Assembly (NCBI GenBank): GCA_947857085.1
Contig: CANUDF010000001.1
Location: forward strand, 3,841-67,840
DNA: 64,000 bases
Source: Candidatus Gastranaerophilales bacterium
GTDB lineage: Bacteria > Cyanobacteriota > Vampirovibrionia > Gastranaerophilales > Gastranaerophilaceae
Direction: 5' to 3'
Shown here: one piece after another, positions 20,783 to 39,490 of the stretch
How the letters are laid out: each line of letters opens with the position of its first letter
Position numbering within the stretch: position 1 is the first letter of the stretch
Made by a program: the position numbers and the translations under genes
Notes under the pieces: model-generated
Database searches by the model: none
What the model was told of the DNA's origin: nothing
What the model saw: the letters and a program-made list of their open reading frames with translations, nothing else

Positions 20783-21092
20783 AATATCTCCTAACTCCGA
20801 CTTAATGTATTATAAATAAATTTTCTCTGAAATGCAATAGTTCATTAAGCAAATTTGACCGGTCTGCTTAGTACTAAAATTTTTTCTTACGGTTAATTTA
20901 ACCAATCTAATATAAAAGTTGGTTACTTACGCCATTTTGCAAGAATATATTCAATCTGCGCGGCAAATTCTACCCATATTTTTAACTATTTTTTGCTATT
21001 CTTTTACAATAAATTAATACAAATAGCAAAAAAAACATTTATGAGTTTTATAAAATACATTTACAACAATAAACCTGAGACAGGCATTATTT

Positions 21093-22898
21093 ATGAAAAT
21101 AACAAACAATTTAAATGTAATATCTCCTATTTGCTTTAAGGAAAATTCTAAGATTGATATAGTTAGATTTTTACAAGTTGACAAAACCTTATACCGGGGA
21201 GGGAAACCTAATGAAAAGCAATTAGAAAGTTTAAAAACTATAGGAATAGATACTATTATTGATTTTTCGACAGGTTATGGAGCAAAAACTCAAGGGAGAA
21301 CAGAAAAGCAGATAACTGAAAATCTCAAAATGAATTATATAAACTTGCCCTTTCCATCTTTTGAAAATCCTCCAGAAGAATATATTGCTAAATTCTTTGA
21401 TATTGTAGAAGAGGCTCGAAATAATGGCAAAAAAGTTTTCATTCACTGTACACATGGGAAAGACAGAACTGGTTTATTTGCAGGGATGTATAAACTTAAA
21501 TATGGTTTGGATAATATTGAAAATGTAGTGAATGAAATGTTGACAATAGGACATGATTCAAATGCTAATCCTAATTTGATACCATTTCTCAAAGACTATT
21601 GTAAATCAACAGATTTAAACTTATCACATAGTAATGTGATTGGTAAAAGCCTGATTTTAAATAAAATAATGGATACATCACATTTTGTGAATGAATTTTT
21701 AAAAGAAGATATATTACTAAAATCAGCAAAACAATTAATTGATAGATATCCTGAGTTAAAATGGCTTACTGGAAATGTAAATGCAACTCCGGAAGGTAAA
21801 ATGACAAATAATATAAATTCAATTTCTGAAAATTTATTTGGGAATAAACATATTGAATTTGATAGAACAATCGTAGGAATTAATTGTCTAAAACAGGTTT
21901 TAAACAATGATTATGAGGGCTTTACTAAATGTCAAAAAGATAATGTAAAATTAACCCCTGAAAACTTTGAACAGCTTAGAGATTTTACTTTAAGTGTTCT
22001 AAAAACTCCCGAAGATATTGATGCAATGATTTCCTATACCGTAATAAATGATTTGGGAAAAATCAAAGAATTTGTTACAAATATTGAGAAATCTACAGGT
22101 AAAAAAGTGAAAGATCATGATGAGGCATTGTTAATAGCACTTAAAGTTAGGCCTAATAAAATACCTTCATTCAACAGATTATCTGATGATTATAAAAATA
22201 ATATTTTGAATGGTTTGAGTGCTGATTTTAATCTAGGGCAATTTGTTCAGGCAGAATGCTTAGAAAGAAATTTGACAGGTTTAAAAAATGTTACTGAAAA
22301 AGCTAGGAACTTGTATCTAACTCATATGTTTTATGATGTAGCAGGGGCAGCCGGTCATGTTAATCCTAACGGGTCTCTGGTTATGACAAACCCTGTTTAT
22401 AAAGGTTATATTCAAGGCATAAATGCTATTAAAGAAATAAATCATTCGTCAGAAATAGAAGTTTATAATAAATTTTTAAAGGAAAAAGCAGAAGATTTAC
22501 AACTGCCAATGCAAAATATTAAAGATCGTGCATTGGTAAAATTAGCAGTAATGAGTAGAGCATCCAATCCTCAAGAGGCTCAAAATGTAATATTGGCTTT
22601 TAGTAAGTTAAGCCAAGACGAACAAATAAATTTAATTAATGGCATAAATGGTAATGGTATAGACAGCCCTGGAACACTTCTATACTATGCACCGGCTTTC
22701 ATTCAAAACTGTATAAATGCTGGTGATAAACGTGAAATGTTAGAAAAAGCATATAAAGTCATTAGCAGGATTTACAAACAAAATGCTAATTACAAAAATG
22801 ATGTAAATGTCCTGTCTTTAGCAAATATTGCAAATGCGATAAAAAGTAATTCAAACTTAACCGTTGATGAATTGTATCAATTATTTATTACAGGTTAA
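21093..22898 (+). CDS. Protein-tyrosine/dual-specificity phosphatase domain protein with a large unknown C-terminal domain
   Basis: It has LYRGGKP...IDTIIDF and the HCTHGKDRTG (HCx5R[ST]G) active-site signature in the first ~170 aa. The remaining ~430 aa are unassigned. Confidence 0.65.
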   Translation: MKITNNLNVISPICFKENSKIDIVRFLQVDKTLYRGGKPNEKQLESLKTIGIDTIIDFSTGYGAKTQGRTEKQITENLKMNYINLPFPSFENPPEEYIAKFFDIVEEARNNGKKVFIHCTHGKDRTGLFAGMYKLKYGLDNIENVVNEMLTIGHDSNANPNLIPFLKDYCKSTDLNLSHSNVIGKSLILNKIMDTSHFVNEFLKEDILLKSAKQLIDRYPELKWLTGNVNATPEGKMTNNINSISENLFGNKHIEFDRTIVGINCLKQVLNNDYEGFTKCQKDNVKLTPENFEQLRDFTLSVLKTPEDIDAMISYTVINDLGKIKEFVTNIEKSTGKKVKDHDEALLIALKVRPNKIPSFNRLSDDYKNNILNGLSADFNLGQFVQAECLERNLTGLKNVTEKARNLYLTHMFYDVAGAAGHVNPNGSLVMTNPVYKGYIQGINAIKEINHSSEIEVYNKFLKEKAEDLQLPMQNIKDRALVKLAVMSRASNPQEAQNVILAFSKLSQDEQINLINGINGNGIDSPGTLLYYAPAFIQNCINAGDKREMLEKAYKVISRIYKQNANYKNDVNVLSLANIANAIKSNSNLTVDELYQLFITG

Positions 22899-22977
22899 GC
22901 AGAAAATAAAATTAATACAACAAACAAATATGATACTATAAATGTAGTATCCTACTTACTAAAAGCATATTATATCC

Positions 22978-25017
22978 CTACATATTTAGACTTTTTAATA
23001 TTAATTTTTGCTCTTGTAATGCATTATATAATGAAGATACTGCCCAAGCCAATGGTGCATTTGTGCCTTGTATCATTTTAGTTTTACCATTTACATCCGT
23101 AACATACTGTAAAGCTTCACTGACTGTTACACCTGGCATATCTAATCCATTAGCTTTTATTTGATTTATTTCTTTAGGGTTTTCATCACTTATTCTTGAA
23201 AGTGCTCTATTTAAATATTCTGTCTGTTTAGATTTCAAGGTCTTGATAAGTTGTCTCTCTTCACTTGTAAAATCCCTCTTTTCTTTTTTGGCAAGTTTAA
23301 TAAGTTTCTCAATTTGCTTTCCATATCCTACAGACATATCAGATACCATAAACCATTGAGCTTCTTTATTTGGTGTTGATAATTTCGCTCTTGCAAAAAA
23401 CATATCAGGATCTGAACAATCTTTCGATGCAAAATTATCTAAAATGCCTTTCCAATCCAAATTTAACTTTCCATTATTATCAATTGCATTAAAATAATTT
23501 AAATTTAAATAACTATCAGGAGAGCTGCCATATTCACCATTTTGTAATTCGAATTTAAATGGAGCATAACGAATTACACCATTTTCTCTGACAAGGTTAT
23601 CCTCAACTGATTGCAGGATTTCCATATGTTTCTTCACATCATCTATAACATTATCTGCTAATTTTATATCTGAAGTTGTTATAAAAATAAGAGAAGAATC
23701 ATGAGGCCTTATACCAGGAGCTTCTTCTAAATATGATTTTCGCACTCTTTGAGTTCCGGCTTCTATTAACTTATTGATTTCATCTTCTTTTAATGGATTT
23801 AATTCACTTAATCTGGCTCTAACTTTTTGTATTTCTACATTATTAGAATATTTAGGAGAATACAACATTTTTTTATAAGCTGCTAAAGCACTTCTTATAG
23901 CTTCCGTATCGGATGTCAAGCCACCTTTAAGTGGTATTTCTTCCCAATTGCCAGAAGATGGAGCTGTTGGATAGTCAATAGCTTTAAAATATTTACTCAA
24001 ATTATCAATTGCCTCTAATACATTTTTAGGTATTGAATCCGCTGATTGATAACCATATTTTTTACCTTTTCCTAAACCATCAATAATTCCATTACAAAAT
24101 TCCTTTAATGCAAGGCCATGTGATTCAAGCCTTTTATTATTAAACCAATTTAAATCAGGTTCTAATGTTTTAGGTAAAAATATATGAGGAATACCTTGTA
24201 AAGCATTACCATCACGATAATTTTCAGGAGCTGCTATTAACTTAGCAAAATTATCTTTTTGATAACCATAATATTCTCCAATAGTATTCAATGCCTTGGT
24301 CCATGTTTCAGGTCTTCTTTTTTTCTGAATATCGCCTATTCTCATAATATCAGTAATCCAGGATCTAGCACTCATATCCCAATTTTCATTGGCTCCACAA
24401 GTTTTTGGAATACCCCTGTTTTTATCTAAGACTATTCCAAAATTGTTGTCATCGCTCATGTCAAAAATACGTTTAGATTCCAAATATTTCTGCAACTTTG
24501 TCAAACTATCAGTGTTATATTCTTCTTTCATTAAACCAGCAATTTTTTTATTATGAACATTATAAACTACATTACCTAATTTTAATTTATTGGGCTTATA
24601 CTCTGTTGCTGCAATCATAACTCTTAGAGCATTCTTTAATGCCTCCATATTATTATCTTTATTTATTTTTTCAATAGTTAATATACTATTTATAGTAGTT
24701 AATTCTCTCGGATTTTCCGGATTATTAACAGTAAAAGAATTTGTTCCGAAAAATTTTCTTAACTTAACCAGCCATTTTTCATCATTTGAATCTAGTTTTT
24801 TATTATTTTCAATATTTATTGAAAGTTTTGTCAAAGCTTTTTTAGCAAAATTTAATTTTGAATTCCCTTCAAAAGATGGATAATATGAATTTGAAATTTC
24901 ACTCAATGAGAATAATATATTTTTTCTTTCTTTTGTTGATATAATACTATTATTGTTTTTATAATTTTTAGATTTTATATTGTTAGCTGTATACGATTGA
25001 ACTGCAGATATTTGCAT
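22978..25017 (-). CDS. Glycoside hydrolase family 15 (glucoamylase)-like protein
   Basis: GNWEEIP, HDSSLIFI, GVIRYAPF and TNAPLAWAVSSLY resemble the GH15 (alpha/alpha)6 blocks (WEE, DxSLL, RY, PLxWSxA). I prefer ATG 25017 over the GTG at 25035. Confidence 0.5.
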   Translation of the reverse strand: MQISAVQSYTANNIKSKNYKNNNSIISTKERKNILFSLSEISNSYYPSFEGNSKLNFAKKALTKLSINIENNKKLDSNDEKWLVKLRKFFGTNSFTVNNPENPRELTTINSILTIEKINKDNNMEALKNALRVMIAATEYKPNKLKLGNVVYNVHNKKIAGLMKEEYNTDSLTKLQKYLESKRIFDMSDDNNFGIVLDKNRGIPKTCGANENWDMSARSWITDIMRIGDIQKKRRPETWTKALNTIGEYYGYQKDNFAKLIAAPENYRDGNALQGIPHIFLPKTLEPDLNWFNNKRLESHGLALKEFCNGIIDGLGKGKKYGYQSADSIPKNVLEAIDNLSKYFKAIDYPTAPSSGNWEEIPLKGGLTSDTEAIRSALAAYKKMLYSPKYSNNVEIQKVRARLSELNPLKEDEINKLIEAGTQRVRKSYLEEAPGIRPHDSSLIFITTSDIKLADNVIDDVKKHMEILQSVEDNLVRENGVIRYAPFKFELQNGEYGSSPDSYLNLNYFNAIDNNGKLNLDWKGILDNFASKDCSDPDMFFARAKLSTPNKEAQWFMVSDMSVGYGKQIEKLIKLAKKEKRDFTSEERQLIKTLKSKQTEYLNRALSRISDENPKEINQIKANGLDMPGVTVSEALQYVTDVNGKTKMIQGTNAPLAWAVSSLYNALQEQKLILKSLNM

Positions 25018-25388
25018 AGACCTTCCCACTTTCACATTTACGTAAGTTTTATAGATTCATTTTCTGATATACCCCCAAAAAGATATCTTTTAGATATATG
25101 CCACTATATGCTAGTATTAATAAAACAAAACAAAACAAAAACAAAATATTTTTATTCTAATATGCTAACTTTTTTAATAATTTGTTACAATTGTATCACT
25201 TTTATTCGATTAAAACATAAAAAAGTGTCTGATAGTTGCTATTCAATCCAATCATAGTTTTTGAAGTTCATCAGAATGGATTTCATAAAATATTTCCCAC
25301 TAGGGGATTAAAAAAATTGCTTGCCCGAAATTCTCAAACTAAACGTTAAAATACAATTGTTTAGAGTCTTAACAACAAAATTCAGTCA

Positions 25389-25435
25389 TAAAAAAACTCC
25401 CCAGGTTGGACTCGAACAAACAACCTACTGGTTAA
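25389..25435 (-). repeat. Degenerate copy of the 3' half of tRNA-Asn (distal att-like repeat)
   Basis: This segment matches 39412..39457, which runs from the anticodon loop (TTAA) through the 3' end plus ~8 nt downstream. The copies differ by 2 substitutions and 1 A-run indel. Confidence 0.85.
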
Positions 25436-26171: not shown

Positions 26172-26221
26172 AGCTGTAAAGTAACACTTAGTTTGAGAAA
26201 AAGTAACAGTAGGTTTGAGAA
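26172..26221 (+). repeat. Left-end site pair: two tandem ~22-bp sites (aaagtaacaNtNNgtttgagaa)
   Basis: aaagtaacacttagtttgagaa and aaaagtaacagtaggtttgagaa sit back to back. They are the inverted partners of 38790..38812 and 38918..38940. Confidence 0.7.
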
Positions 26222-27614: not shown

Positions 27615-29198
27615 ATGGAAATTTGCTTAGAAAAAATAAAAGATAAAATAAATAAAGCGACAGCTACCAATAGAAATGATCTATATGATTCACATATCTA
27701 TTGGTCACAAAAACCTTATAATATTTGTGATATTCTAATAAATTCATTTAGCAAAAAAGGTGATATTGTTTTTGATCCATTTCTAGGTTCTGGAGTAACA
27801 TTATTACAATCTATAAAAAAAGAGAATGATCGTATTGGTATTGGTTGTGAAATTAATGATGCACCTATTTTTATTGTTAATACCCTATTGGCAAAATATG
27901 ATACTAAAAAATTCAAAAAAATATCAGAAGAATTTATTCAACAATTAAAAAAACTATTACCATATTATTACACGAAATGTCCTTATTGTGGGAAAAATGC
28001 AGTAATAACATCTGTAATTTTTGATAAACCGTCAAGAAATGCTGATATTAATATTAAAACAATTAATTTTAGATGTTCTTGTACTAGTAAATCTACAAAA
28101 TTAGCTGATGATAATGATTACAAATCAATAAATATAAATGAAGAAATTAAAAATATTAAAAGCGAGTTTCTAATTCCGAACTCAAAAATAGCCGTATATG
28201 AAAATCAACATATTGATCAGATTTTTACAAAACGAAATTATCTAATTTTAGATAAAATTATAGGAATAATAAACCATCTTGAAAACTATAGTGATTTGTT
28301 TAAATATTTATTAATGTCTATTATTCATTTAGCAAAAATCACTGATACACATTCATCTTCACAGTGGCCGCTTTGGATTCCGAAGAATAACTGCGTTGAA
28401 AAAAACATTATTGATTTAATAGAAAAAAAAGTTATTAAATTTGAGAAAACAATAAAATATTTAAATAATAATTACTCTAACACTAACTCTTATAAATTAT
28501 TGCACAAGGGCAGTCAGTTTATAGATGATACAGATATTTCAGATGAATCCATTCAACTTATTATTACTGATCCTCCATACTTAGGACAAGTTGCATATTC
28601 AGAATATATGCAATTATATAAACCTTTTTTAAATTTAAATTTTAATTTAGACGATGAAATAATTGTGTCATCTGCACCTTCAAGAAATAAAAACGAAGAC
28701 CAATATTTCAAAGACCTAGATAATGTATTTTCAATATGTTCAAAAAAAATGAAAAATGAAGGTTATTTGTGTTTGTATTTTCATGATAGCAGTCTAGAAG
28801 TATGGGATAAATTAATTAATATATTGTCAAAAAATCACTTTAAATATTTATCACAAGCACATATACGAAAATCAAACACTTTAAAGAATATAATAAGCCC
28901 CAAAAAGTCTCTGAATGGAGATTGTATATTATTTTTCCAAAAGGATAATAACATTGCTTCGAATCCTATTGGTTCAGAAGATATATTAGAAATCGAACAA
29001 AATATTATAAAACAAGCGAAATTTTTAGTAAAACGAGCGAATTGCCTTTCTACTCCAGAATTGTATGATTTGGGTCTTATGGAAATTTTAATTCACAATG
29101 GATGGTTAAATCCATTATCAAAAAAATACAAATCTTTAGTTGATATATTTGAAAAGCATTTAATTTGGGATTCAATTAAATCAAAATGGACTCTTTAA
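27615..29198 (+). CDS. Alpha-class amino (N6A/N4C) DNA methyltransferase with Cys-rich insert
   Basis: It has VFDPFLGSGVT (motif I) near the N-terminus, a CPYCG...CSC insert, and IITDPPY (motif IV) about 260 aa later. It starts 1 nt after the upstream MTase stop. Confidence 0.7.
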   Translation: MEICLEKIKDKINKATATNRNDLYDSHIYWSQKPYNICDILINSFSKKGDIVFDPFLGSGVTLLQSIKKENDRIGIGCEINDAPIFIVNTLLAKYDTKKFKKISEEFIQQLKKLLPYYYTKCPYCGKNAVITSVIFDKPSRNADINIKTINFRCSCTSKSTKLADDNDYKSININEEIKNIKSEFLIPNSKIAVYENQHIDQIFTKRNYLILDKIIGIINHLENYSDLFKYLLMSIIHLAKITDTHSSSQWPLWIPKNNCVEKNIIDLIEKKVIKFEKTIKYLNNNYSNTNSYKLLHKGSQFIDDTDISDESIQLIITDPPYLGQVAYSEYMQLYKPFLNLNFNLDDEIIVSSAPSRNKNEDQYFKDLDNVFSICSKKMKNEGYLCLYFHDSSLEVWDKLINILSKNHFKYLSQAHIRKSNTLKNIISPKKSLNGDCILFFQKDNNIASNPIGSEDILEIEQNIIKQAKFLVKRANCLSTPELYDLGLMEILIHNGWLNPLSKKYKSLVDIFEKHLIWDSIKSKWTL

Positions 29199-29200
29199 CA

Positions 29201-31591
29201 CTAGCTTTCTAATATTCCATTATAATATTTGTTTGGAAATGCATCATTTAGTTGTTGGACAATTTCTTGACCATTTATTATTTTAATATCATTTGCGCAG
29301 GCTATTGTTTTTCCATCTTGCGTGTAATCTGATGTTGTAATACATACTGCGATATCGAAACCTCTTCGAATTTTTTCAGAATGTAAACGTTGAATTGGTT
29401 CGCTTCCAACATTGGCAACCCAACGTTTACATTGGAATAAGTATTTAGTTGTATTGCCATTTGTTATTTTTTTTGCGAGCAAATCAACACCTAGGTCTCC
29501 AGAACCTCCAGTATTAATTACATCAATATAGCCTTGCGCTTCGAGTAATGATTTTATAATTATTTCAAAATCCGTCCCCGATAAACATGATACATCTATT
29601 GCATCATCAGAAATTGCGTTTGTATATGTTTTTTTGATATAAACATTTTCATTGCAATCGCAATAATTTTTAATTATTTTTTTTATTTCATTTTGACAAT
29701 TATTATCATCTAAAAAACTATTAATAGAATTAGGATTACCATCACATAGTTTGTTTGCTATTTCAAAATAAAGATCATCTAATACAAATTGTCCGTTTTT
29801 TTCTAGTAATTCTTTTATAAATAACGGCATCAAATCATATAATTTTGTAAATAAATCATTATTGTCTTCAATATCAAGATATAACTTGTTACAGTTTATT
29901 CTCACTATTGCATTTGTGTCTATATGAAAATTTTGTTGTATTACAGAAGTAATCTTCTCAATATCACTTTCGGTTGCAATATAAGATTGTTTCTCTTTCA
30001 AAATGTCTAAAATATATTGCACGCAGGTAGTTAAAGTAATATCAGAATTTGCAGTTTGTAGTATTTTATTATATATTAATTTGACAACTTCAAATTCATA
30101 GTTTTTATTACCTACATACCAATAAGCTTCGGTTTTAGGCAATTTCTCGAAAAATACAATCATTTCTTTTGATAAGGTATTTTTGTATGCAGATTGTTTT
30201 CTGATTGTCGGATCATTTTTATCAATTCCAATTCTGGCAATATACTCAAACCCATTTTTTCTTGCAAGATTTATAATTTGAGTCAAAGTTTCAAAATATT
30301 TTCTTGCACCAAGTTTAATTGTAAAGATAGCAAGTTTGTTATCTTTTAAAACCTTGATAAAGTTTTTAAACATGGTATCTATATCATTAAAATAATTATC
30401 AAGAGATTGTTTGTTTGGTCTTGAAGGTGCATTTGTTAACACTAATTCATTATTAAGCATATCCTCAGTTAATTCAAATTCACCAGGTTTATAAAATTTA
30501 TTCAACCATTTTCTATATAACTGATTCCATTCTAAATATGGCACTTGATCTGTATAAGGGAAGTCAGTATATATCATATCAAATTTTTGTTCTAGGCAAT
30601 TATTTATATAGGCTTGATAAGGAACGTTATATAGTTCGTATAAATTGTTATTTTCCGGATTTGTTGATAATATTTCGCAAAATTCTTCCTGAAATTTAAT
30701 AAGTGCTTCAACTTTGTTTTTAAATATTTCCCAAACATTCGTTTCTTGTGCTCCTTTCATAACAACATGGTATAAACGGTCAGTTGATGAACCATACATT
30801 GCAATTCTAGATAATGCAAGAGATGATACTAACATGAATTCTAAAAAATCTTTTTCCGGACTATTTGTTAAGTTTTTAATACCATTTTGAAGAATCAATA
30901 GTGCTTTTTGATTTCTTTTAGTAAAAAGCCTATTATAATAATCGGCACCAGTTGCTGCAGTTATATTTATTCTGCTATTTTCAATATATTTATCATTAGG
31001 AAAATCTTCAATATGTTCATTATTTATTTCATTTAATTTTTCTAAATCATAGCTAGAAAAATGTTTATATAAATTATGACATTTAGAACACCTTTCAACT
31101 AATTTCACATTTTTCCCATCTTGTATATCTCTATTATCCGTTGGATTAAAATATTCTTCTGTTTGTGGATCATAAAATAATTTTGAAATATAGTTTTTTT
31201 CTCCACAACATTCTGTTTCATATAGATTCATAATTAACGGCTTGGTATCAGTTTCTAATTGATTTAGATAATTTTGTAATATTTCCAAGTTTATTTTCTT
31301 AAATATTGTTTTTACAATAGAAAAAGTATAATTATCAATTTCATTCCCAATGATTTTTTTATTAGCCATTGATGCCGCGATAATAAAAGAACCAGACCCC
31401 ATAAATGGATCATAAAGTACATCATTTGGACCAGCTAGCGTTTCTATGATGTTGTGTGCAATGTCAATTGACTTTCTACCGGGAAAGTTAAACACAGTCT
31501 TAAAAGAATGAGGGACTTTATTTTCAACACCTTCCAAATTAGCAATTAAAGTTCTAATTTTTTGATAAGTTTCTTCATTGATTCTTTTCAT
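29201..31591 (-). CDS. Fusion protein: alpha-class DNA methyltransferase-like module plus C-terminal Mrr-type (PD-(D/E)xK) restriction endonuclease domain
   Basis: The N-terminal module (LYDPFMGSGSF, CC..CSKC insert, IYTDFPY, NAPSRPNK) is colinear with 27615..29198. The C-terminal FEIIIKSLLEAQGY..GGSGDLGVDLL..FQCKRW..VG..CITTSDYT matches the Mrr catalytic domain pattern. Confidence 0.7.
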   Translation of the reverse strand: MKRINEETYQKIRTLIANLEGVENKVPHSFKTVFNFPGRKSIDIAHNIIETLAGPNDVLYDPFMGSGSFIIAASMANKKIIGNEIDNYTFSIVKTIFKKINLEILQNYLNQLETDTKPLIMNLYETECCGEKNYISKLFYDPQTEEYFNPTDNRDIQDGKNVKLVERCSKCHNLYKHFSSYDLEKLNEINNEHIEDFPNDKYIENSRINITAATGADYYNRLFTKRNQKALLILQNGIKNLTNSPEKDFLEFMLVSSLALSRIAMYGSSTDRLYHVVMKGAQETNVWEIFKNKVEALIKFQEEFCEILSTNPENNNLYELYNVPYQAYINNCLEQKFDMIYTDFPYTDQVPYLEWNQLYRKWLNKFYKPGEFELTEDMLNNELVLTNAPSRPNKQSLDNYFNDIDTMFKNFIKVLKDNKLAIFTIKLGARKYFETLTQIINLARKNGFEYIARIGIDKNDPTIRKQSAYKNTLSKEMIVFFEKLPKTEAYWYVGNKNYEFEVVKLIYNKILQTANSDITLTTCVQYILDILKEKQSYIATESDIEKITSVIQQNFHIDTNAIVRINCNKLYLDIEDNNDLFTKLYDLMPLFIKELLEKNGQFVLDDLYFEIANKLCDGNPNSINSFLDDNNCQNEIKKIIKNYCDCNENVYIKKTYTNAISDDAIDVSCLSGTDFEIIIKSLLEAQGYIDVINTGGSGDLGVDLLAKKITNGNTTKYLFQCKRWVANVGSEPIQRLHSEKIRRGFDIAVCITTSDYTQDGKTIACANDIKIINGQEIVQQLNDAFPNKYYNGILES

Positions 31592-31765
31592 ACTTAAACT
31601 ACCTCAACTCTTTAAAACTATTCTTCATTTATCTCATAAAAATATGTTTATATCAATTTAGAATATAAATTTTTGTACTTAAAAATTAAAAAATAATTAA
31701 TTTTGAGCCGATTTGCTAAAATTTAATATATGATTTTCATGAGAAATTGAACTATAGAGTTAAAT

Positions 31766-33442
31766 ATGGTGGAAGAGGAAAAAGTTAAAACTATTAATCT
31801 CAATATAATGTTATTAAAAAATTGTTGTAATTTAAACAATCGAGAAGATTATATTGATAAATATTCAGAAAAAAATATTATAAAAGGTGGCAAGAGCAAT
31901 GATTCTTACTTTTTATATAAAAATGGTCGAGGAAAAAGCAAACCTTCTTGGGTTTTAGAATTTGATGAAAAAGTATTAGATGGGATCAAAGATTCTTTTG
32001 AAGATACTTCTTCTGAAGGACTTTCTGTTATTAAACAGATTAATTACAAAAATATAAATTATTTATTTTCAATAAATTTTGGTCAAGGATGGAGAAATAT
32101 AAAAAAAGACAAAATAGAAGATACTTTTGGTATATATACAACAATTGCAATAATAGAAGAAGGTGCTAAAATACGTAGAGCAGGAACACGAAATATATCA
32201 AGCAATCCTAAAAATACAGAATTTCAACATGCTTTTGAAATTACAAATGAGACATTTAACTCAGAATTAGAAGATAATGATATTATAAGACATTTGAATG
32301 CAACAGCTGATACTTCTACTATTAGCTCGGTCATTGGTAAATATGGTCCTTTAAATATAAGAATGAGGTTTAAGGAATCAGAAATCCCTTGTTGGGACTA
32401 TCTTGATGACAGATTATTGTCATTATTAGAACAGTATTTAAAAATACAAACAAATGAAAGAATTATAAATAAATATTTTAAAGGATTACGCCCATTACCT
32501 AGTGCTAAGCAAAAAGAATTAAATGATAACCTTGACTCTAAAATACTCGAAGATACTTCTAAATTTTTCTTATTTGAACCAGAAATAGACTATGATCCTA
32601 CTATTATTTCAAGTATCAAATACAAATTAAAAGAGGATTCTAGAGCCTCTGAAACATACGAAAATTTAAAATTGGAAGATTATCTAGTTTTAAGAGAATC
32701 CAAAATGCCTTTAAATTTAAATGAAGATAAAGTCTTTTTAATAAATGAAGATGGGAAAAAGTGTAAAGAATGGACCATTTTAAAGTGTCTATATGGCGAA
32801 ATTAAACAAGACAATCAAGTCTATATATTATCAAATTCTGTCTGGTATGGTATGTCTAATGATAAATACGAACGAATTAATAAAAATATTAAAGCGATAC
32901 AAGAAGATTTTTATATAGATGATTGTACCAAGGAATCTACACAAAAAAGTATTATGAAGCAAAAATTAAAAGGTGTAAAACAAATAGCCAAAGAACGAAT
33001 TTTTAATACGGCATTATGTAAACAACTTTCAGGTGAATTATTTGATGAAATTAGTCAACAAATTACTATTGATGGTGACAAGATGGAAGTTTGTGATATT
33101 TTTAATCCAAAAGAAAAAGAATTTATTCATTCAAAAATAAGTTCTGATGCTGCGAAACTTAGCCATCTTTTTAATCAGGGATATGTTTCTGCAAGAGCAT
33201 TCGCATCGATGAAAGAACAATATGTATCATTAGTAAATGAAAAAATGAAAAATGAAGAACATAAATTAGATGATTCACAAAATTCGCATCAAAAATATAC
33301 CATAAGGTATCTAATAATAAATGGTAATACTAAAAATAGATTAACTTTTATAAGCAAGTTAGCTCTTGATAAAATTATTACCGATTTAAAAGGTTTTGGT
33401 TATAATGTTAAATTGTCTTGGGTAAATCAAATCAGTTTATAA
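31766..33442 (+). CDS. Uncharacterised protein, probably DUF6119 / TIGR04141 'sporadically distributed' family
   Basis: At 558 aa, its N-terminal INLNIMLLK..., FSINFGQGW and C-terminal MEVCDIF..FIHSKISSDAAKLSHLFNQGYVSA fit my recollection of that family (E.CD..iH.K...S..LSHLf.QG.vSa). This is not verified by search. Confidence 0.45.
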   Translation: MVEEEKVKTINLNIMLLKNCCNLNNREDYIDKYSEKNIIKGGKSNDSYFLYKNGRGKSKPSWVLEFDEKVLDGIKDSFEDTSSEGLSVIKQINYKNINYLFSINFGQGWRNIKKDKIEDTFGIYTTIAIIEEGAKIRRAGTRNISSNPKNTEFQHAFEITNETFNSELEDNDIIRHLNATADTSTISSVIGKYGPLNIRMRFKESEIPCWDYLDDRLLSLLEQYLKIQTNERIINKYFKGLRPLPSAKQKELNDNLDSKILEDTSKFFLFEPEIDYDPTIISSIKYKLKEDSRASETYENLKLEDYLVLRESKMPLNLNEDKVFLINEDGKKCKEWTILKCLYGEIKQDNQVYILSNSVWYGMSNDKYERINKNIKAIQEDFYIDDCTKESTQKSIMKQKLKGVKQIAKERIFNTALCKQLSGELFDEISQQITIDGDKMEVCDIFNPKEKEFIHSKISSDAAKLSHLFNQGYVSARAFASMKEQYVSLVNEKMKNEEHKLDDSQNSHQKYTIRYLIINGNTKNRLTFISKLALDKIITDLKGFGYNVKLSWVNQISL

Positions 33443-33462
33443 TTAAAAATCAAAAGCAAAAC

Positions 33463-33506
33463 ATTGTTCAAAAAGTGTTCAACAGTGTTCAAAAGGTGTT
33501 TAAAAA
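33463..33506 (+). repeat. Four tandem 10-11-bp repeats (GTGTTCAAMA-like), helically phased
   Basis: The repeats read attgttcaaaaa / gtgttcaaca / gtgttcaaaag / gtgtttaaaaa. They lie in the 147-bp gap between two convergent genes. Confidence 0.7.
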
Positions 33507-33589
33507 TCAAAATAGGTATCAGAGTGCCTTTTTGAAATTTTCATGCAAAATAACGCAAAATAAAAGGAGCTGTTAAACTCCCAAATAGA

Positions 33590-34423
33590 CTACTCATGAA
33601 AAAAATTTTCGGTATCAAATCGTGAAAAGTTTAGGTTTCTGAATTTTTCTATTTTATTATCTGAATATTCTTTCTTCACCCAACGAAGATATGTTTTAGC
33701 AGAAGATACTTTTGCTCGATTAATTTTTATTTTAATCAATCTCTCAAATCTTTGAATTGCAAGTTCTCGGGCTTCACTTAAAGAATACTGTTTTGGCGAA
33801 AGATAATATTCTTTAAAAAAATAATATATTTCACCGGGTTCTCTTGTTTCTGATCCTACAAGATTTATCAAGCCATTTCTTGAAATTTCATATTTAAATT
33901 TATTATATTTATTTAATGTAATATTGGCTGTTTTTAACGTCTTTTTAAGTTCTCTCTCATTCATTCCTTGAGTTTGTTTTAATAACTTGAACATATCTTT
34001 TATATTTTGTTTAGTTTCAGGAGGAGCAAAGAAATAATCAATAAAGCCATCTAACTCATTAATATATTTGGGAAAAACTTCTTTAGGCTTTTTAACTTGA
34101 AATGGCAACATATGACGCATGCAGTCGCTGTCACTTTCTATTGTTTTTTCTTTGGATTTACTTATTTGAGGAATATAAATATATGAATCCCCATTATCTC
34201 TTATAATATTTTTTGACGTTAGTTTTTCTAAAATCGGAATAATTTCTATTTTTGATTTTTCAAGTAGGATTTCTAAATCTTCTACTGTAAAAATATTTAA
34301 TTTCTTAATCGCTATTTCAATATTTTTTTCTAATAAATTTTTCCTATGTCTTGTTTCCACCTTAAAACTCCAGTTCTTGCTTTGTAATTTTCTTATATCC
34401 GTTAGTTTGTGCCAATTCTTCAA
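33590..34423 (-). CDS. Hypothetical HTH/winged-helix-like protein, third gene of the transposition operon
   Basis: The ORF-track ATG 34423 overlaps the ATPase gene by 62 nt. An in-frame GTG at 34360 lies 1 nt after the ATPase stop, with GGAG 7 nt upstream, so it is the likely coupled start. Confidence 0.5.
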   Translation of the reverse strand: MKNWHKLTDIRKLQSKNWSFKVETRHRKNLLEKNIEIAIKKLNIFTVEDLEILLEKSKIEIIPILEKLTSKNIIRDNGDSYIYIPQISKSKEKTIESDSDCMRHMLPFQVKKPKEVFPKYINELDGFIDYFFAPPETKQNIKDMFKLLKQTQGMNERELKKTLKTANITLNKYNKFKYEISRNGLINLVGSETREPGEIYYFFKEYYLSPKQYSLSEARELAIQRFERLIKIKINRAKVSSAKTYLRWVKKEYSDNKIEKFRNLNFSRFDTENFFHE

Positions 34424-35036
34424 TCTTTAAAATATAAATTACAATTTGCCTTAGTCGATTAGCATTTTTTGCAATCATTTCAATTACTTCATCATCAAGC
34501 GGAACTTCGCATAATTTTGTAACAATTTCTTTTATATCTTCAAAATCAAAAGGGACAAATTTATAAATACCCAAAAGCCTGTCATATAAATGCTTAAATC
34601 TTTTTAATTTTTTATCAGCAGCTCCCATTCCAACTAATAAAACAGGAATTCCTGTTTTATCGTGCAAATCACGAACTGTTTCAATAGCTCTTGTAGATTC
34701 TACCAAGTAATCAACTTCATCCACGATTAACATTCTTGGTTTTTCTATTAACTTCGCAACAGCTTGATCAAATAATTCAAAAGATGTTTTCTTTGGCTCT
34801 TCGCCTAATTCCTTAACAAGAGCTTTTAAAAACCAAATTCTTGACATTCCATTTGTTGCTGTAACCAGTATGGCATTTTGGTTTAAAGTCCACCAAAGAA
34901 CAGCATTGCTTTTACCCAATCCTGGTTCACCATATACAAGTCCAATTTTAGGAACATTATATTTTGCATTATTTAATCTTTCTATTAATGAAACAAATGC
35001 TCTAACATTTTTTGTTTTTACAAATGTTCTTCTCAT
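34362..35036 (-). CDS. MuB/TniB-like AAA+ ATPase (transposition target-capture protein)
   Basis: It has Walker A GEPGLGKSN and Walker B LIVDEVDYL. It is 224 aa and lies 12 nt downstream of the transposase gene. Confidence 0.65.
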   Translation of the reverse strand: MRRTFVKTKNVRAFVSLIERLNNAKYNVPKIGLVYGEPGLGKSNAVLWWTLNQNAILVTATNGMSRIWFLKALVKELGEEPKKTSFELFDQAVAKLIEKPRMLIVDEVDYLVESTRAIETVRDLHDKTGIPVLLVGMGAADKKLKRFKHLYDRLLGIYKFVPFDFEDIKEIVTKLCEVPLDDEVIEMIAKNANRLRQIVIYILKIEELAQTNGYKKITKQELEF

Positions 35037-35048
35037 AATTATCTCCCT

Positions 35049-36986
35049 TTAATCCTCAACGCCATACAACAATTTATATTCGGTTGATTTTTTATAATTA
35101 TCCACCCATTTTTGCTCATCTTCAGATAAATCGGGTTTGTTTTTTAGATAATCATATCTTTCGTATTTATTATGAAATACAATTTTTTCAGGTTGAATTT
35201 CATCTTCTTTTAAGCTTTCAATGAGCAACTTTTTATCTTCTATGCTTGGCTTATAAATCACATTATCGGTTTCATTTAGTGCCGGTAAATATACCTTTTC
35301 TTTTTTCAGTTCTCTAAGATATTGTTTTACAGTTTGCTTTTCAAGTTCTTTTTGTTGTTTAATTCGTTGTTTTAATTCTTCCACATCTTTTGCTTCGCCT
35401 GTATAATTAGCAAGTGGATGAATTGGGGCAAGTCTTTCGGCTGTACATAAAAATTCGCCCGACATTGTAAAAACTTTGATATAAGACAAATCAAAAAGAC
35501 TATATTTTATAACAACTTGAGTCCTTAATCCGTATAAACTTTCGTGATAATAATCGGATTTTAAAAATCTTATTCCGTTTCTGCCAATATTTTTAATAAC
35601 ATTTACCATCATTAAATCATCTAGTGTTGAAATATCAATGCCATTACCTTTTCCCGCATCAAATACTTCCCCAATACTTAAACCCTTTACATTAGGACAA
35701 GGTTGTGCATAATGAAAGTTAACCATCCAACGAGTAATATAATTTATAACTTCATCCATTGTAGGAATGTAATTGCTGTGAATTTCTTTGTGTAAGCGTT
35801 CATTGCGTTTTTTATAAGCTGGTTTATTATCAATACAAGAACCCACAAAAGAAGGCAATATACGTTCAAAACTATCCTGCATTTCCCTAAAAAATCTTTC
35901 TATCGGTTTAGCTTTGGCATTATATGGTTTTGCGAAAATCGGAGTTATTCCAAGTTTTATAAATAAACCGCTAATATCATCATCTGCTGTAAAATAATCA
36001 GCCTTATATGCTTTTCCGTTATCTTGATAAACAAATTTTGGATATTTACCCAATGCAATAATTGAATTTCTGAGTGCTGAAGCAATACATTGGGTATTTT
36101 CTTCCAACATAACTTCAAAACCAACCATTGCTCCAGATTTCCAATCTTGATAAGCAGCAATTGTCGGTCTGCATGGTTTGCCTGTAAATGGATTTATAAC
36201 CTCAAATGCAAGCCTATGCCCATCACCAATTAAAACATCTCCTACATTTAATTTTAAAATATCTCTTTCGATATATGGTATAACTTTATCTCTTAAGGCT
36301 TTTGCACCTTCTCTTGCAAATATCCACATATCATAGTGTTCCTGTTTATACTTGGAGATAAACCTCCGATATGTCATCTCGCATGCTAAATTAGTTACAC
36401 CCTGCTGTAATAAAAGATGCTTTGTTAATTTGATAGCTTTTCCAATATTTGGTTGGTTAGGGTTCAGTAATATTTTTAAAACTGTTTCCTTTTCTTTTTC
36501 TGAAAATTTATCTTTATTCGGTTGTGATTTATATTTTGGAGCTAGGACTTTCCAATTATCAGCATTTTCTTTTAGAAGTCTATCCCAACGCATTATTGTT
36601 GATATTGCTATATTGTTAATATTTTCATACTGATTATTTTTATTTGGCATGTTATTATAAACAGATACAAATTCTTTAATAGCATCAACCTTTTTACCTT
36701 TATAATTAACGCAAAAAGCACGCCATTTCATTACAATATCAAATTTAGTTAATGCTCGTTTTTTACTCTTTTCACTAATGGGAGTGTTAAAATTCTCTGT
36801 GGAAATTTCGGTCGAATATAGTTTATTAACTTCATCTTGCCACTCTTGTTCAATAGATGAAACTAAAACTTCATATCTCTGGCAAATTTTTCGCCCTATA
36901 TATTTTCCGCTTGTTACTAATTTGCGAACAGATCTATCAGATACGCCTTTAATTTTTGCAAGCTCGGTTGCTCTAATCCACTCCAT
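35049..36986 (-). CDS. Mu A-like DDE (rve/Mu-transposase) transposase
   Basis: It has an N-terminal HTH (IRATELAKIKGVSDRSVRKL). The DDE core is LIGDGHRLAF..RPTIAAYQDWKSG, VYQDNGKAY and KPIERFFREMQ. The GDG(H/Y)...RP...(W)QD spacing is like phage Mu A. Confidence 0.75.
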   Translation of the reverse strand: MEWIRATELAKIKGVSDRSVRKLVTSGKYIGRKICQRYEVLVSSIEQEWQDEVNKLYSTEISTENFNTPISEKSKKRALTKFDIVMKWRAFCVNYKGKKVDAIKEFVSVYNNMPNKNNQYENINNIAISTIMRWDRLLKENADNWKVLAPKYKSQPNKDKFSEKEKETVLKILLNPNQPNIGKAIKLTKHLLLQQGVTNLACEMTYRRFISKYKQEHYDMWIFAREGAKALRDKVIPYIERDILKLNVGDVLIGDGHRLAFEVINPFTGKPCRPTIAAYQDWKSGAMVGFEVMLEENTQCIASALRNSIIALGKYPKFVYQDNGKAYKADYFTADDDISGLFIKLGITPIFAKPYNAKAKPIERFFREMQDSFERILPSFVGSCIDNKPAYKKRNERLHKEIHSNYIPTMDEVINYITRWMVNFHYAQPCPNVKGLSIGEVFDAGKGNGIDISTLDDLMMVNVIKNIGRNGIRFLKSDYYHESLYGLRTQVVIKYSLFDLSYIKVFTMSGEFLCTAERLAPIHPLANYTGEAKDVEELKQRIKQQKELEKQTVKQYLRELKKEKVYLPALNETDNVIYKPSIEDKKLLIESLKEDEIQPEKIVFHNKYERYDYLKNKPDLSEDEQKWVDNYKKSTEYKLLYGVED

Positions 36987-37135
36987 TAAATCCTCCTGTA
37001 TTTTAATAATTTGTATTGAAGTACAATTTTTGTAGATTAATCAAGATAGGTTTTATATTATACTAAATAGACTAATGGTATAGTGGAATAATATACCATG
37101 TAATTCTAAAGTTTTGTTATAAATTACTCGGGCTG
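36987..37135. promoter_or_regulatory. Divergent control region between the transposase and the Mor-like gene, with an operator-like palindrome
   Basis: There is a perfect 8-bp inverted repeat, atggtata(9 nt)tataccat, at 37076..37100, and a second small palindrome, ttgta-ttgaag-tacaa, near 37011..37026. Confidence 0.35.
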
Positions 37136-37471
37136 ATGGTTATTATAATATTTCTCATGTATAATTGGTTTATGTACGACAAAGAACCTAAATGGGCAAA
37201 ATATATTACAGAAGATTCTATTGATGACTATGGTTTATTAGACTTAGTCAACATAATTGGACTTGAAGCAACAAAAAAGTTGATGATTCATTATGCAGGA
37301 AATAGCATTAGAATTCCAAAATCAGCCAATACAAAATATAAACATCAATATGTTTTAGATAATTATGATGGAACAAAAATCTCTAGAATGAGAACTGCTA
37401 TTGAATGTCAAATTACTGAAAATTATATTTTTAAAATTATGAAAATGTATAAAGATAAAAAGCCAATGTAA
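37136..37471 (+). CDS. Mor-like transcription activator family protein (tentative)
   Basis: At 111 aa, its AGNSIRIPK...YDGTKISRMRTAIECQITENYIFKIM fits the Mor pattern (G...iyIPK...f.G.n...la..y.ls.r.iyrI). It is divergent from the Mu A-like gene. Confidence 0.4.
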   Translation: MVIIIFLMYNWFMYDKEPKWAKYITEDSIDDYGLLDLVNIIGLEATKKLMIHYAGNSIRIPKSANTKYKHQYVLDNYDGTKISRMRTAIECQITENYIFKIMKMYKDKKPM

Positions 37472-37474
37472 AAA

Positions 37475-38677
37475 TTATACATTATAACCTAAGTATCTCA
37501 GTCCTGAATTTGTATTTTCGTTTCTAATTGGCAATTCATCCCTAAGAAGTCCAATAACTTCTTGTGCTGTGGATTCCCCAAAATATCTTATAGAAGAATT
37601 TTTTATTAATTTATCAAGTTCTTTTGGAGAAGCTATTTTTAATTTCTGAATACACGATTTTACATCTTTTACATTGTTTTCTTTTGCAAATTTCTCCTTC
37701 CAGTTAAATCTTACAGAATTGGTCAAATAAGTATTTATGTTATTTGCGAGAAATTCGGATATATCTTCTAAATTTGCACTATCTATGTTCTGATCCGAGA
37801 ATATTTCTAGTGCATTTTTTCTATAATTCAATCTGATGCCTTCATTATCCCATACAGAATCAGAAATTATCCAATTATGATATTCTTGAATACAATTTTT
37901 TAAAAGTTTTGCTTTTTGTTCACTATTTAAATTGTTTACTTCAAATGAATAGTAGTAATCTTTTGAAGAATTATTCTCTGAATGATGGAATAAGTAATTC
38001 AAGAAACTATCTATTTCAAATTTTAGCGGTGAATTTTTCCAAATTCTACCATAGGATTCATATTGTTTTGACAACTCATTATATTCATTCAGGAACTGTT
38101 CATAACTACATTTTTCAGTAAGCTCTTTTGGCAATTTAATAATTGGTTTTAAATCAGGATTAAAACCTTCTGTATCAATATAAGTTGAATTATTCAATGC
38201 TTCATCCAACATTTCTTGATTAACTGGTGTTCCAAGTTCCCAAATTTCATTGTACATTGCTTCAAATCTATCAACATCTAATATATCACCGGCAACACCT
38301 GTTTCATAGTTTACATATAATCCTCTATAGGTCATATTAGCAGAGGTTACAACCGAATAATCATCCATTAAATACATTTTTGCGTGTAAATGTTTTAAGC
38401 TTCTTAATTCACAATTATTACCTAAGAAAAATTTTAAAATTTTATAATTATTGATTGAAATATTATTCAAATCAGTAAGAAGTCTGAAATTTGGCTTGTG
38501 TTTCTTAATTTTGCTTATTTGAAAAATATAATAAAAAATCTTTTCACTACTTATAAATGGTGAAGATATCCATAGACGATTACATATTCTGCCTGAATGT
38601 TCGTGTAGATAATTGGTAATACAATCCATTTTTGTAGTATACCTAAAATCAATTAAATTATTAATTAAATCTGCCAT
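37475..38677 (-). CDS. Single-HKD phospholipase D-superfamily nuclease (Nuc/BfiI-like) with unknown C-terminal domain
   Basis: It has one canonical HxK(x)4D(x)6..SxN motif, LHAKMYLMDDYSVVTSANMT, in the N-terminal ~150 aa. The C-terminal ~230 aa end in an HhH-like segment, FGESTAQEVIGLL. Confidence 0.6.
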   Translation of the reverse strand: MADLINNLIDFRYTTKMDCITNYLHEHSGRICNRLWISSPFISSEKIFYYIFQISKIKKHKPNFRLLTDLNNISINNYKILKFFLGNNCELRSLKHLHAKMYLMDDYSVVTSANMTYRGLYVNYETGVAGDILDVDRFEAMYNEIWELGTPVNQEMLDEALNNSTYIDTEGFNPDLKPIIKLPKELTEKCSYEQFLNEYNELSKQYESYGRIWKNSPLKFEIDSFLNYLFHHSENNSSKDYYYSFEVNNLNSEQKAKLLKNCIQEYHNWIISDSVWDNEGIRLNYRKNALEIFSDQNIDSANLEDISEFLANNINTYLTNSVRFNWKEKFAKENNVKDVKSCIQKLKIASPKELDKLIKNSSIRYFGESTAQEVIGLLRDELPIRNENTNSGLRYLGYNV

Positions 38678-38789
38678 ACTTGCTCCTAAATACTATTATA
38701 TCTAACTATATTATTATAAATAAGCATACAAAACTAGTTCCGATAAATTGGTTCCGCAAATTTAAAAACTTTACTGATTTTTTATAAAT

Positions 38790-38940
38790 TTCTCAAACTC
38801 AATGTTACTTTTAAAAATCAGCTTTAAATATTTATATACATTAAATTTTAGGTGTTTATACATAAAACAAATTTATTGGGTTTGAGCCATAAAAGTTCCG
38901 CAAAATTACATTTTTTAAATTCTCAAACATATGTAATTTG
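38790..38940 (+). repeat. Right-end sites (ttctcaaac...gt(t/a)a(c/t)), inverted relative to 26172..26221
   Basis: The sites are ttctcaaactcaatgttactttt at 38790..38812 and aattctcaaacatatgtaatttg at 38918..38940. The first matches the reverse complement of 26199..26221 at 20 of 23 positions. Confidence 0.65.
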
Positions 38941-39078
38941 CCTTTCCGACCAATCCTGTTTATATTTCCGACCAATCCGTTTGTACTCATTTTATGTGTT
39001 ACTTTACACCTTATGATAATTTTTCCGAAACTTGGTGTTAATTTTTTAATTCCTTGCACAACTGGACTATACCAAAAT

Positions 39079-39262
39079 AATCAAACTATCCGTACACCTT
39101 AAAAACGGTGCTAAAACCAGCTATATTAAGAAAAAATCAAACTATCCGTACAGTCCCCAAAAAGTCCATTTCGGCAGTTTGATTTTTTTGGTAAACTTAA
39201 TTTTCCGACCCAAAAACGCCCTCGCAGAGCGGGCTGTCCAAAATAATCAAAGTATCCGTACA
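39079..39262 (+). repeat. Three direct copies of an 18-bp motif, aatcaaa(c/g)tatccgtaca
   Basis: The copies lie at 39079..39096, 39135..39152 and 39245..39262 (start spacings 56 and 110 bp). The reverse complement begins TGTAC. Confidence 0.8.
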
Positions 39263-39418
39263 AATAAAACCGGTCGTTAAATTACAATAGCCAAAATAAA
39301 TTAAATAATAAGTGCAGACAATAATAATTTTATTCAAGGGTAAATAATTATTTTTTTGGTCAATATATGGTCAATTTTTTTTAGTCGATTTTCGAGGGGG
39401 CTGAAACCCAATAAAAAA

Positions 39419-39490
39419 CTCCCCAGGTTGGACTCGAACCAACAACCTACCGGTTAACAGCCGGTTGCTCCGCCATTGAGCTACTGAGGA
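39419..39490 (-). tRNA. tRNA-Asn (anticodon GTT)
   Basis: The reverse complement TCCTCAGTAGCTCAATGG...CCGGCTGTTAACCGG...GGTTCGAGTCCAACCTGGGGAG folds into a cloverleaf with a CTGTTAA anticodon loop. CCA is not encoded. Confidence 0.9.

Follow-up and report, generated by a model that had tools for sequence, protein, structure and literature searches.

A PLD-family nuclease gene as optional cargo at the right end of a Mu-type transposon in Gastranaerophilales

Does a nuclease gene that lies next to the end of a transposon serve transposition, or is it carried along? The question arises in a 64,000-nt stretch of DNA from a Candidatus Gastranaerophilales bacterium (the window, analysed over its whole length), in which a PLD-family nuclease gene borders the right end of a Mu-type transposon. 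A sequence-only reading of this DNA had proposed two roles: a TnsA-like partner of the transposase, whose activity would explain the missing resolvase, or the endonuclease of two methylases (MTases A and B) on the same element.

The PLD gene and its two domains

The gene and its parts are as follows.

37475..38677, (-): PLD-family nuclease gene (P0001), 400 aa; intact ORF, PLDc_2 match above threshold, full-length homologues
38183..38620, (-): N-terminal PLD catalytic domain, about residues 20-165; Pfam and fold matches
38330..38386, (-): HKD motif HAKMYLMDDYSVVTSANMT, residues 98-116; from the translation, with invariant residues in alignment A1
37478..38137, (-): C-terminal all-helical domain, residues 181-400; from the model and conserved blocks, no family match
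38678..38739, (-): short leader upstream in the PLD cassette, with an AGGAG 6 nt ahead of the ATG; homology with PLD-less elements ends here

The gene's island has a GC content of ∼26%, compared with 33-38% in the flanks. Pfam PLDc_2 matched residues 34-129 of the protein (E 3.1e-8; 34 bits against a cut-off of 27 bits), which contains a single HKD motif (LHAKMYLMDDYSVVTSANMT, residues 97-116). In an alignment of 11 full-length homologues with identities down to 23%, residues H98, K100, S112, A113, N114 and E125 were invariant and the aspartate of the HKD motif was variable (D, E or G), so that the catalytic pattern of Nuc/BfiI-type HKD nucleases, HxK...N(x)E, is present. An AlphaFold model of the whole protein, built from the same alignment, reached a pLDDT of 87. 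Foldseek matched its PLD domain with probability 1.00 to SauUSI, Zucchini, BfiI, NucT, Nuc and TrmBL2, with SauUSI as the top fold match (PDB 7clg, E 9.7e-6) and BfiI (PDB 2c1l) at E 8.9e-5. A sequence search of the PDB with the whole protein gave no match, another PLD copy in the same genome was looked for and not found, and a promoter scan upstream of the gene gave nothing above shuffled expectation. Together, motif and predicted structure show that the gene encodes a PLD-type (HKD superfamily) nuclease fold with an intact active site. The earlier description, in which a PLD nuclease of the single-HKD, Nuc/BfiI type carries a C-terminal domain without assignment, is thus borne out by the PLDc_2 match, the invariant residues and the fold matches, and the Foldseek comparison proposed with it returned nucleases (SauUSI, Zucchini, BfiI, NucT and Nuc) as neighbours.

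The same matches bear on whether the protein might have kept the fold and lost the activity, acting as a catalytically silent DNA-binding or chromatin protein like TrmBL2, or as a lipid-directed PLD. TrmBL2 is among the top fold and sequence matches and the HKD aspartate is not conserved, but the active-site residues H, K, N and E do not vary within the family and the best fold neighbours are nucleases. By inspection, the protein has no signal peptide or membrane segment; as its N-terminus lacks a signal peptide, it is expected to be cytoplasmic. We therefore regard a silent or lipid-directed protein as quite improbable.

The C-terminal ∼220 aa form an 11-helix domain (pLDDT 92 when modelled alone) with two conserved blocks, E.D.FLNYLF and P..N....G.R..GY. 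Its last 75 aa match phrog_28026, a family of unknown function. Pfam and PDB sequence-profile searches with the domain gave nothing significant. The fold had no Foldseek match in the PDB (none at E<2) or BFVD, so the domain stays without assignment after the structural comparison that had been suggested for it. The idea that it ends in a helix-hairpin-helix-like segment is faintly hinted at: hhalign placed the C-terminal FGxS..QELLG onto the HhH motif of the genome's own EndoIII with a probability of 0.4%. Genome-wide, PF21790 (OGG-like) and PF00730 (HhH-GPD) matched the housekeeping EndoIII and not the PLD gene. As the domain has no detectable similarity to known modification readers, the label 'sensor', where we use it, is given by position only.

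An optional slot at the right end of the transposon

The transposon that contains the PLD gene is Mu-type and phage-less, and its inverted termini TGTAAAGTAACA lie at 26175 (+) and 39008 (-); the same termini are found in three related elements (L045, L043 and L044). Its landmarks are the following.

26175..26221, (+): transposon left end, TGTAAAGTAACA plus two GTAACAnnnnGTTTGAGAA sites; the counterpart in G001 is L039:6284-6333
33590..34423, (-): third conserved core gene, 277 aa; no family
34362..35036, (-): MuB/TnsC-like AAA+ ATPase, 224 aa; AAA_22, TniB; phrog_296 E 5.5e-43
35049..36986, (-): MuA/TnsB-like DDE transposase, 645 aa; Mu-transpos_C; phrog_310 E 2e-96
37136..37471, (+): Mor-like small regulator, 111 aa, a conserved core gene; Pfam Mor E 2.6e-4; phrog_836
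38790..39008, (-): right-end repeats, with terminus TGTAAAGTAACA (ending at 39008) and an inner GTAACAnnnnGTTTGAGAA site at 38790-38808
39419..39490, (-): tRNA-Asn gene (ARAGORN); the element lies downstream of the tRNA

With the inverted termini located, the PLD gene proves to lie outermost of all genes at the transposon's right, tRNA-proximal end, in agreement with its earlier placement there. It is convergent with the Mor-like regulator, with 3 nt between the stop codons; the regulator, which matches a late transcriptional activator family (phrog_836), is divergent within the transposon and 53-80% identical in L001, L043-L047 and L049. The third core gene had no match in Pfam, NCBIfam or PHROG and is 36-72% identical in L001, L043-L046, L049 and L050. 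The cargo comprises a DUF6119 gene and a three-gene methylase/Mrr cassette. No 5-bp target duplications were found at 26175 and 39008.

If the PLD protein were a TnsA-like partner, it would cut the 5′ strands at the element ends and convert a replicative Mu-type transposase to cut-and-paste. Its gene is the first inward of the right end and is transcribed inward, as is tnsA in Tn7, and the genes of the window element gave no resolvase-family Pfam match. A second element, L001 in another Gastranaerophilales genome (G141), has the same arrangement as the window with different cargo (AbiH and type I R-M): all five genes, PLD included, are 52-63% identical, and the PLD gene has the same slot and orientation. 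Such retention of the PLD gene in two elements at core-like divergence, taken alone, looked favourable to the TnsA-like idea.

Closer relatives of the window element argue against it. In L045 and L043/L044, TnsB is 82%, TnsC 80-87%, the regulator 79-80% and the third gene 67-72% identical to those of the window, and the right ends of L045 and L043 match the window base by base from the terminus to CTGCGGAACCAATTTATCGGAAC (alignment A3). Beyond CTGCGGAACCAATTTATCGGAAC, the L045 and L043 sequences enter the regulator gene directly from its 3′ end, without an intervening PLD, whereas window and L001 continue into the PLD cassette. The slot is thus empty beside an 82%-identical transposase, and the called genes of L045 and L043 likewise gave no resolvase-family Pfam match. 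As the called genes of PLD-less elements lack such a match too, PLD is not the reason for the missing resolvase, contrary to the explanation first offered. No PLD was found in L049 (transposase 60% identical), L050 (55%) or L056 (49%), nor in G060, which has an 81%-identical transposase. A further element on contig C27 of the same genome (39%) also has none; that contig stops ∼640 bp past the transposase start.

The same picture holds across the host order: the transposase was found in 139 of 201 genomes and a PLD homologue in three of the 201. In one and the same database, the transposase family had 4,737 matches at E<1e-20 and the PLD 13. Most PLD homologues lie outside any transposon, which was the outcome of surveying their linkage to MuA-like genes. 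The two trees also disagree. The PLD of L001 is 70% identical to the non-transposon PLD of L005 and 58.6% to that of the window; window and L001 PLDs thus occupy the same slot, yet are not mutual closest relatives, and by these identities the PLD tree does not match that of the transposon. Two further points weigh against a TnsA-like partner, namely that the PLD fold is not the PD-(D/E)xK fold of TnsA and that a convergent regulator gene separates PLD from the transposase operon. A literature search for PLD nucleases linked to Tn7-like or Mu-like machinery found nothing relevant. We consider a TnsA-like role highly unlikely: it fails where the slot lacks PLD next to transposases of 82%, 60%, 55% and 49% identity. 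As the comparative data rule out a PLD that replaces TnsA, no new transposition chemistry is implied.

Because PLD is absent from close elements, is so much rarer than the transposase across the order and has a tree of its own, the conserved core of the transposon is, as judged from gene content, a set of four genes, with PLD optional. The PLD gene is shown to be a single-gene cassette of ∼1.26 kb, which fills an optional slot with the transposase-binding repeats of the right end on one side and the Mor-like regulator on the other.

Several further observations concern the slot and the ends. In another Melainabacteria MAG, L019:1-1760 corresponds to window positions 37262-38970 with a 98.5% identical PLD and the right-end DNA kept; from a point within the Mor-like gene onward, core-like genes follow instead, and L019 is a derivative formed by deletion or else a chimera of the assembly. 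L050 carries a distinct two-HKD PLD protein (451 aa; L050:11439-13801) beside a PAPS-reductase-like gene in the main cargo region (TnsB 55%), so PLD nucleases are a recurrent type of cargo among these transposons. The 3′ end of the tRNA-Asn gene is duplicated across the window element (25391-25435 and 39413-39457; 45 nt, 96%). A related element in G001 has a 29-nt duplication (86%) of a tRNA-Asp 3′ end at L039:6389-6417 (G001:C5:91388-91416), followed by a different terminator hairpin. Such att-like duplications thus recur around a DDE transposon, and neither locus gave a site-specific recombinase Pfam match.

Between the tRNA and the TGTAAAGTAACA terminus lie TGTACGGATAGTTTGATTATTT / CAGTTTGATTATT repeats (window 39075-39262, L001:9350-9570, L045:120-380 and L043:9080-9160). 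As they accompany elements at different tRNAs, they travel with the element, though outside the inverted termini. The 22-nt TGTACGGATAGTTTGATTATTT repeat was considered as the inverted terminus itself and rejected: no copies were found at the left end, and the real termini are TGTAAAGTAACA. L043 is a tandem array, in which the left end of one element lies 2 bp from the TGTACGGATAGTTTGATTATTT / CAGTTTGATTATT repeats of the next. A TTCCG / CGGAAC core motif occurs ∼7 times in the right end (window 38738-38990), is kept in L045, L043 and L001 (alignment A3), and may be a binding site of the Mor-like regulator or the third core protein. Within the right-end repeats, a 67-aa ORF (38856-39059, (-)) has tblastn matches in L043-L047 (55-63% identity), which probably reflect conserved end DNA and not a gene. 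Beyond the tRNA fragment, a low-GC block (20800-25390) holds a PTP-DUF6829 fusion, a 685-aa ORF without family and, at 25330-25355, a degenerate site of the right-end type; this block may be what is left of an older tandem element.

In the host order, the Mu-type transposase often occurs in 2-6 copies per ∼2-Mb genome, and the cargo of these transposons is variable and mostly defence (DpnII R-M, MmeI-like, type I R-M with AbiH, SIR2 with an SNF2 helicase). This is a highly successful and apparently undescribed Gastranaerophilales transposon family. In the genome of the window, the C27 element is a divergent TnsB/TnsC pair at the contig end (G000:C27:21877-24582; L030:11878-14583; 39% and 44% identity), which adjoins ORFs of 1045 and 1416 aa; near it, the third core gene had no detectable homologue.

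A stand-alone cargo nuclease

As the PLD gene is cargo, its partner might be sought among the other cargo genes. A BfiI-like Type II restriction endonuclease with MTases A and B as cognate methylases would agree with the layout of the protein (N-terminal PLD plus a C-terminal DNA-binding candidate) and with the presence of two MTases on the element, and the BfiI gene itself adjoins methyltransferases (PMC12191111). Here, however, the MTases lie ∼8.3 kb from the PLD gene (29198 to 37475), beyond the transposition genes, and the C-terminal domain is all-helical and not the pseudobarrel of BfiI. The distribution of the genes also separates them. MT_A, MT_B and an MTase-Mrr fusion nuclease recur together in the PLD-less L056 (69%, 84% and 75% identity), where they are carried by a Mu-type transposon that is more distantly related (transposase 49%), and the MTase-Mrr family has 486 members in the database that yielded 13 PLD matches. 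Conversely, G141 has PLD and lacks the methylase cassette, and homologues of MTases A and B were absent from the ∼15 PLD homologue loci, L001 included, so that the co-occurrence survey found no linkage. By this distribution, MT_A, MT_B and MTase-Mrr are a self-contained three-gene cassette of which PLD is not the nuclease, and we give the proposed partnership very little credence.

In an exhaustive search for the PLD family, a threshold of E<1e-3 gave 303 cluster representatives and one of E<1e-10 gave 88. The majority have a length of ∼400 aa and align from end to end; the joining of PLD and helical domain therefore defines a real but modest family. Across ∼15 homologue loci (from Melainabacteria, Acidobacteria, WOR-3, Scalindua, a Micrarchaeota archaeon and metagenomes) no neighbour gene is conserved. 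The surroundings are those of mobile elements and defence islands: two ThsB-TIR genes, a DUF433/DUF5615 pair, TA pairs, an integrase with a UvrD-like helicase, a HipA-like kinase, a Schlafen/AAA_21/methylase cluster, and Fic and ArdC.

One regularity stands out among the four homologues of at least 58% identity (window, L001, L005 and L040): each is the first gene downstream of a tRNA, co-directional with it, at 53-740 bp. This would suit a selfish or element-serving nuclease, either a homing-type cassette directed to tRNA-downstream sites or an aid against competing mobile DNA, as would the tight single-gene insert and a PLD tree that does not follow the transposon. Such a role is nevertheless unlikely. 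The transposon itself targets tRNA-downstream sites, which accounts for two of the four cases; in L005 and L040 no flanking tRNA-fragment repeats or target duplications were found around PLD; and the loci of the more distant homologues L010, L012, L016 and L042 contain no tRNA. A shade less probable again is a fully autonomous selfish cassette that occupies tRNA-downstream sites, transposon ends there included, or, as a milder version, a helical domain that acts as a new type of sensor for DNA or its modification, with the protein as founder of a new single-gene defence family.

Overall, we favour a stand-alone cargo nuclease that partners neither the transposition machinery nor the MTases and is most likely a methylase-independent restriction-type defence enzyme, with a probability of roughly 0.6. 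The defence role is suggested by the architecture, the lack of a partner gene and the mobile-element and defence-island contexts of the relatives. If Nuc and BfiI are a guide, the N-terminal single-HKD domains of two molecules would come together in one metal-independent active site, and the phosphodiester would be cut through a covalent phospho-histidine (H98, K100, N114 and E125). The 220-aa helical domain would supply DNA binding and substrate choice, and the enzyme would act as a Type IV-like or END-like defence that needs no methylase. In this it comes close to the orphan restriction-type enzyme of the sequence-only reading, from which the partnership with MTases A and B has to be dropped. 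PADLOC gave just weak, generic matches of the DrmC/DpdK type, which leaves the family outside the catalogued defence systems. Defence leaves unexplained the tRNA-first position of the four close homologues. The core-like divergence (52-63%) between window and L001 implies long-term retention of PLD, which leaves room for a transposon-related benefit.

The PLD gene is an ordinary-looking, uncharacterised cargo nuclease, and its modest interest rests on the C-terminal domain without known relative. It stands for a small uncharacterised family (∼300 cluster representatives, from Melainabacteria to Acidobacteria, WOR-3, Scalindua and an archaeon) in which a PLD nuclease of the BfiI/SauUSI type is fused to a well-folded helical domain. 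If PLD is a methylase-independent restriction enzyme like the END nucleases, this domain would be a new reader of DNA or its modification, of interest for phage-defence work and as a possible tool enzyme. For the abundant Gastranaerophilales Mu-type transposons, the locus reveals a second cargo slot at the tRNA-proximal end.

Comparison with known systems

PLD nucleases with varied C-terminal domains have been described, for example BfiI and SauUSI, and the END nucleases are single-gene proteins, a PLD domain plus a C-terminal sensor, that restrict hypermodified phages (PMC12191111). By analogy, the protein of the window would belong to this modular kind of PLD nuclease with a variable C-terminal sensor.

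TnsA of Tn7 resembles the PLD gene in position only, as the first gene inside the right end, transcribed inward. TnsA is a PD-(D/E)xK nuclease and an obligate partner of TnsB encoded in the same operon, whereas PLD has another fold, is dispensable and is missing from nearly all related elements. DrmC of DISARM and DpdK of Dpd share the generic HKD motif region, but PLD scores 24 against 133 bits and 22 against 100 bits, far under the family cut-offs. Membership of these systems was rejected, as the DrmC, DpdK and ZacB matches were sub-threshold (PADLOC, NCBIfam); the window contains no DISARM or Dpd genes.

The Type IIS enzyme BfiI (2c1l) likewise has an N-terminal single-HKD PLD domain and a separate C-terminal domain, and dimerisation to one active site would be expected in both. 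However, BfiI binds DNA through a B3-like pseudobarrel, whereas the C-terminus here is all-helical, and Foldseek found no match to 2c1l outside the PLD domain; BfiI has adjacent cognate methylases, whereas the PLD gene has no conserved methylase neighbour. The Type IV enzyme SauUSI (7clg), the top fold match of the PLD domain, is a methylase-independent restriction enzyme, but is an ATP-dependent protein of ∼950 aa with helicase and target-recognition domains, compared with 400 aa and no ATPase here.

By analogy, the closest precedent for the PLD gene is the END nuclease family (ENDPaCF1; PMC12191111). Both are single genes without a methylase, with an N-terminal PLD domain that carries HxK and has the SauUSI PLD domain as its best structural neighbour. 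Both have a C-terminal helical domain of ∼200 aa and occur in mobile or defence contexts. They differ in that domain: the END C-terminus is an inactivated EndoIII/OGG (HhH-GPD) fold (PMC12191111), whereas the domain here has no PF21790 or PF00730 match, an hhalign probability of 0.4% against EndoIII and no Foldseek match to an EndoIII or OGG structure. As the domain that defines END nucleases is not detectable, we place PLD as an enzyme that would work like the END group, and not as a member of it.
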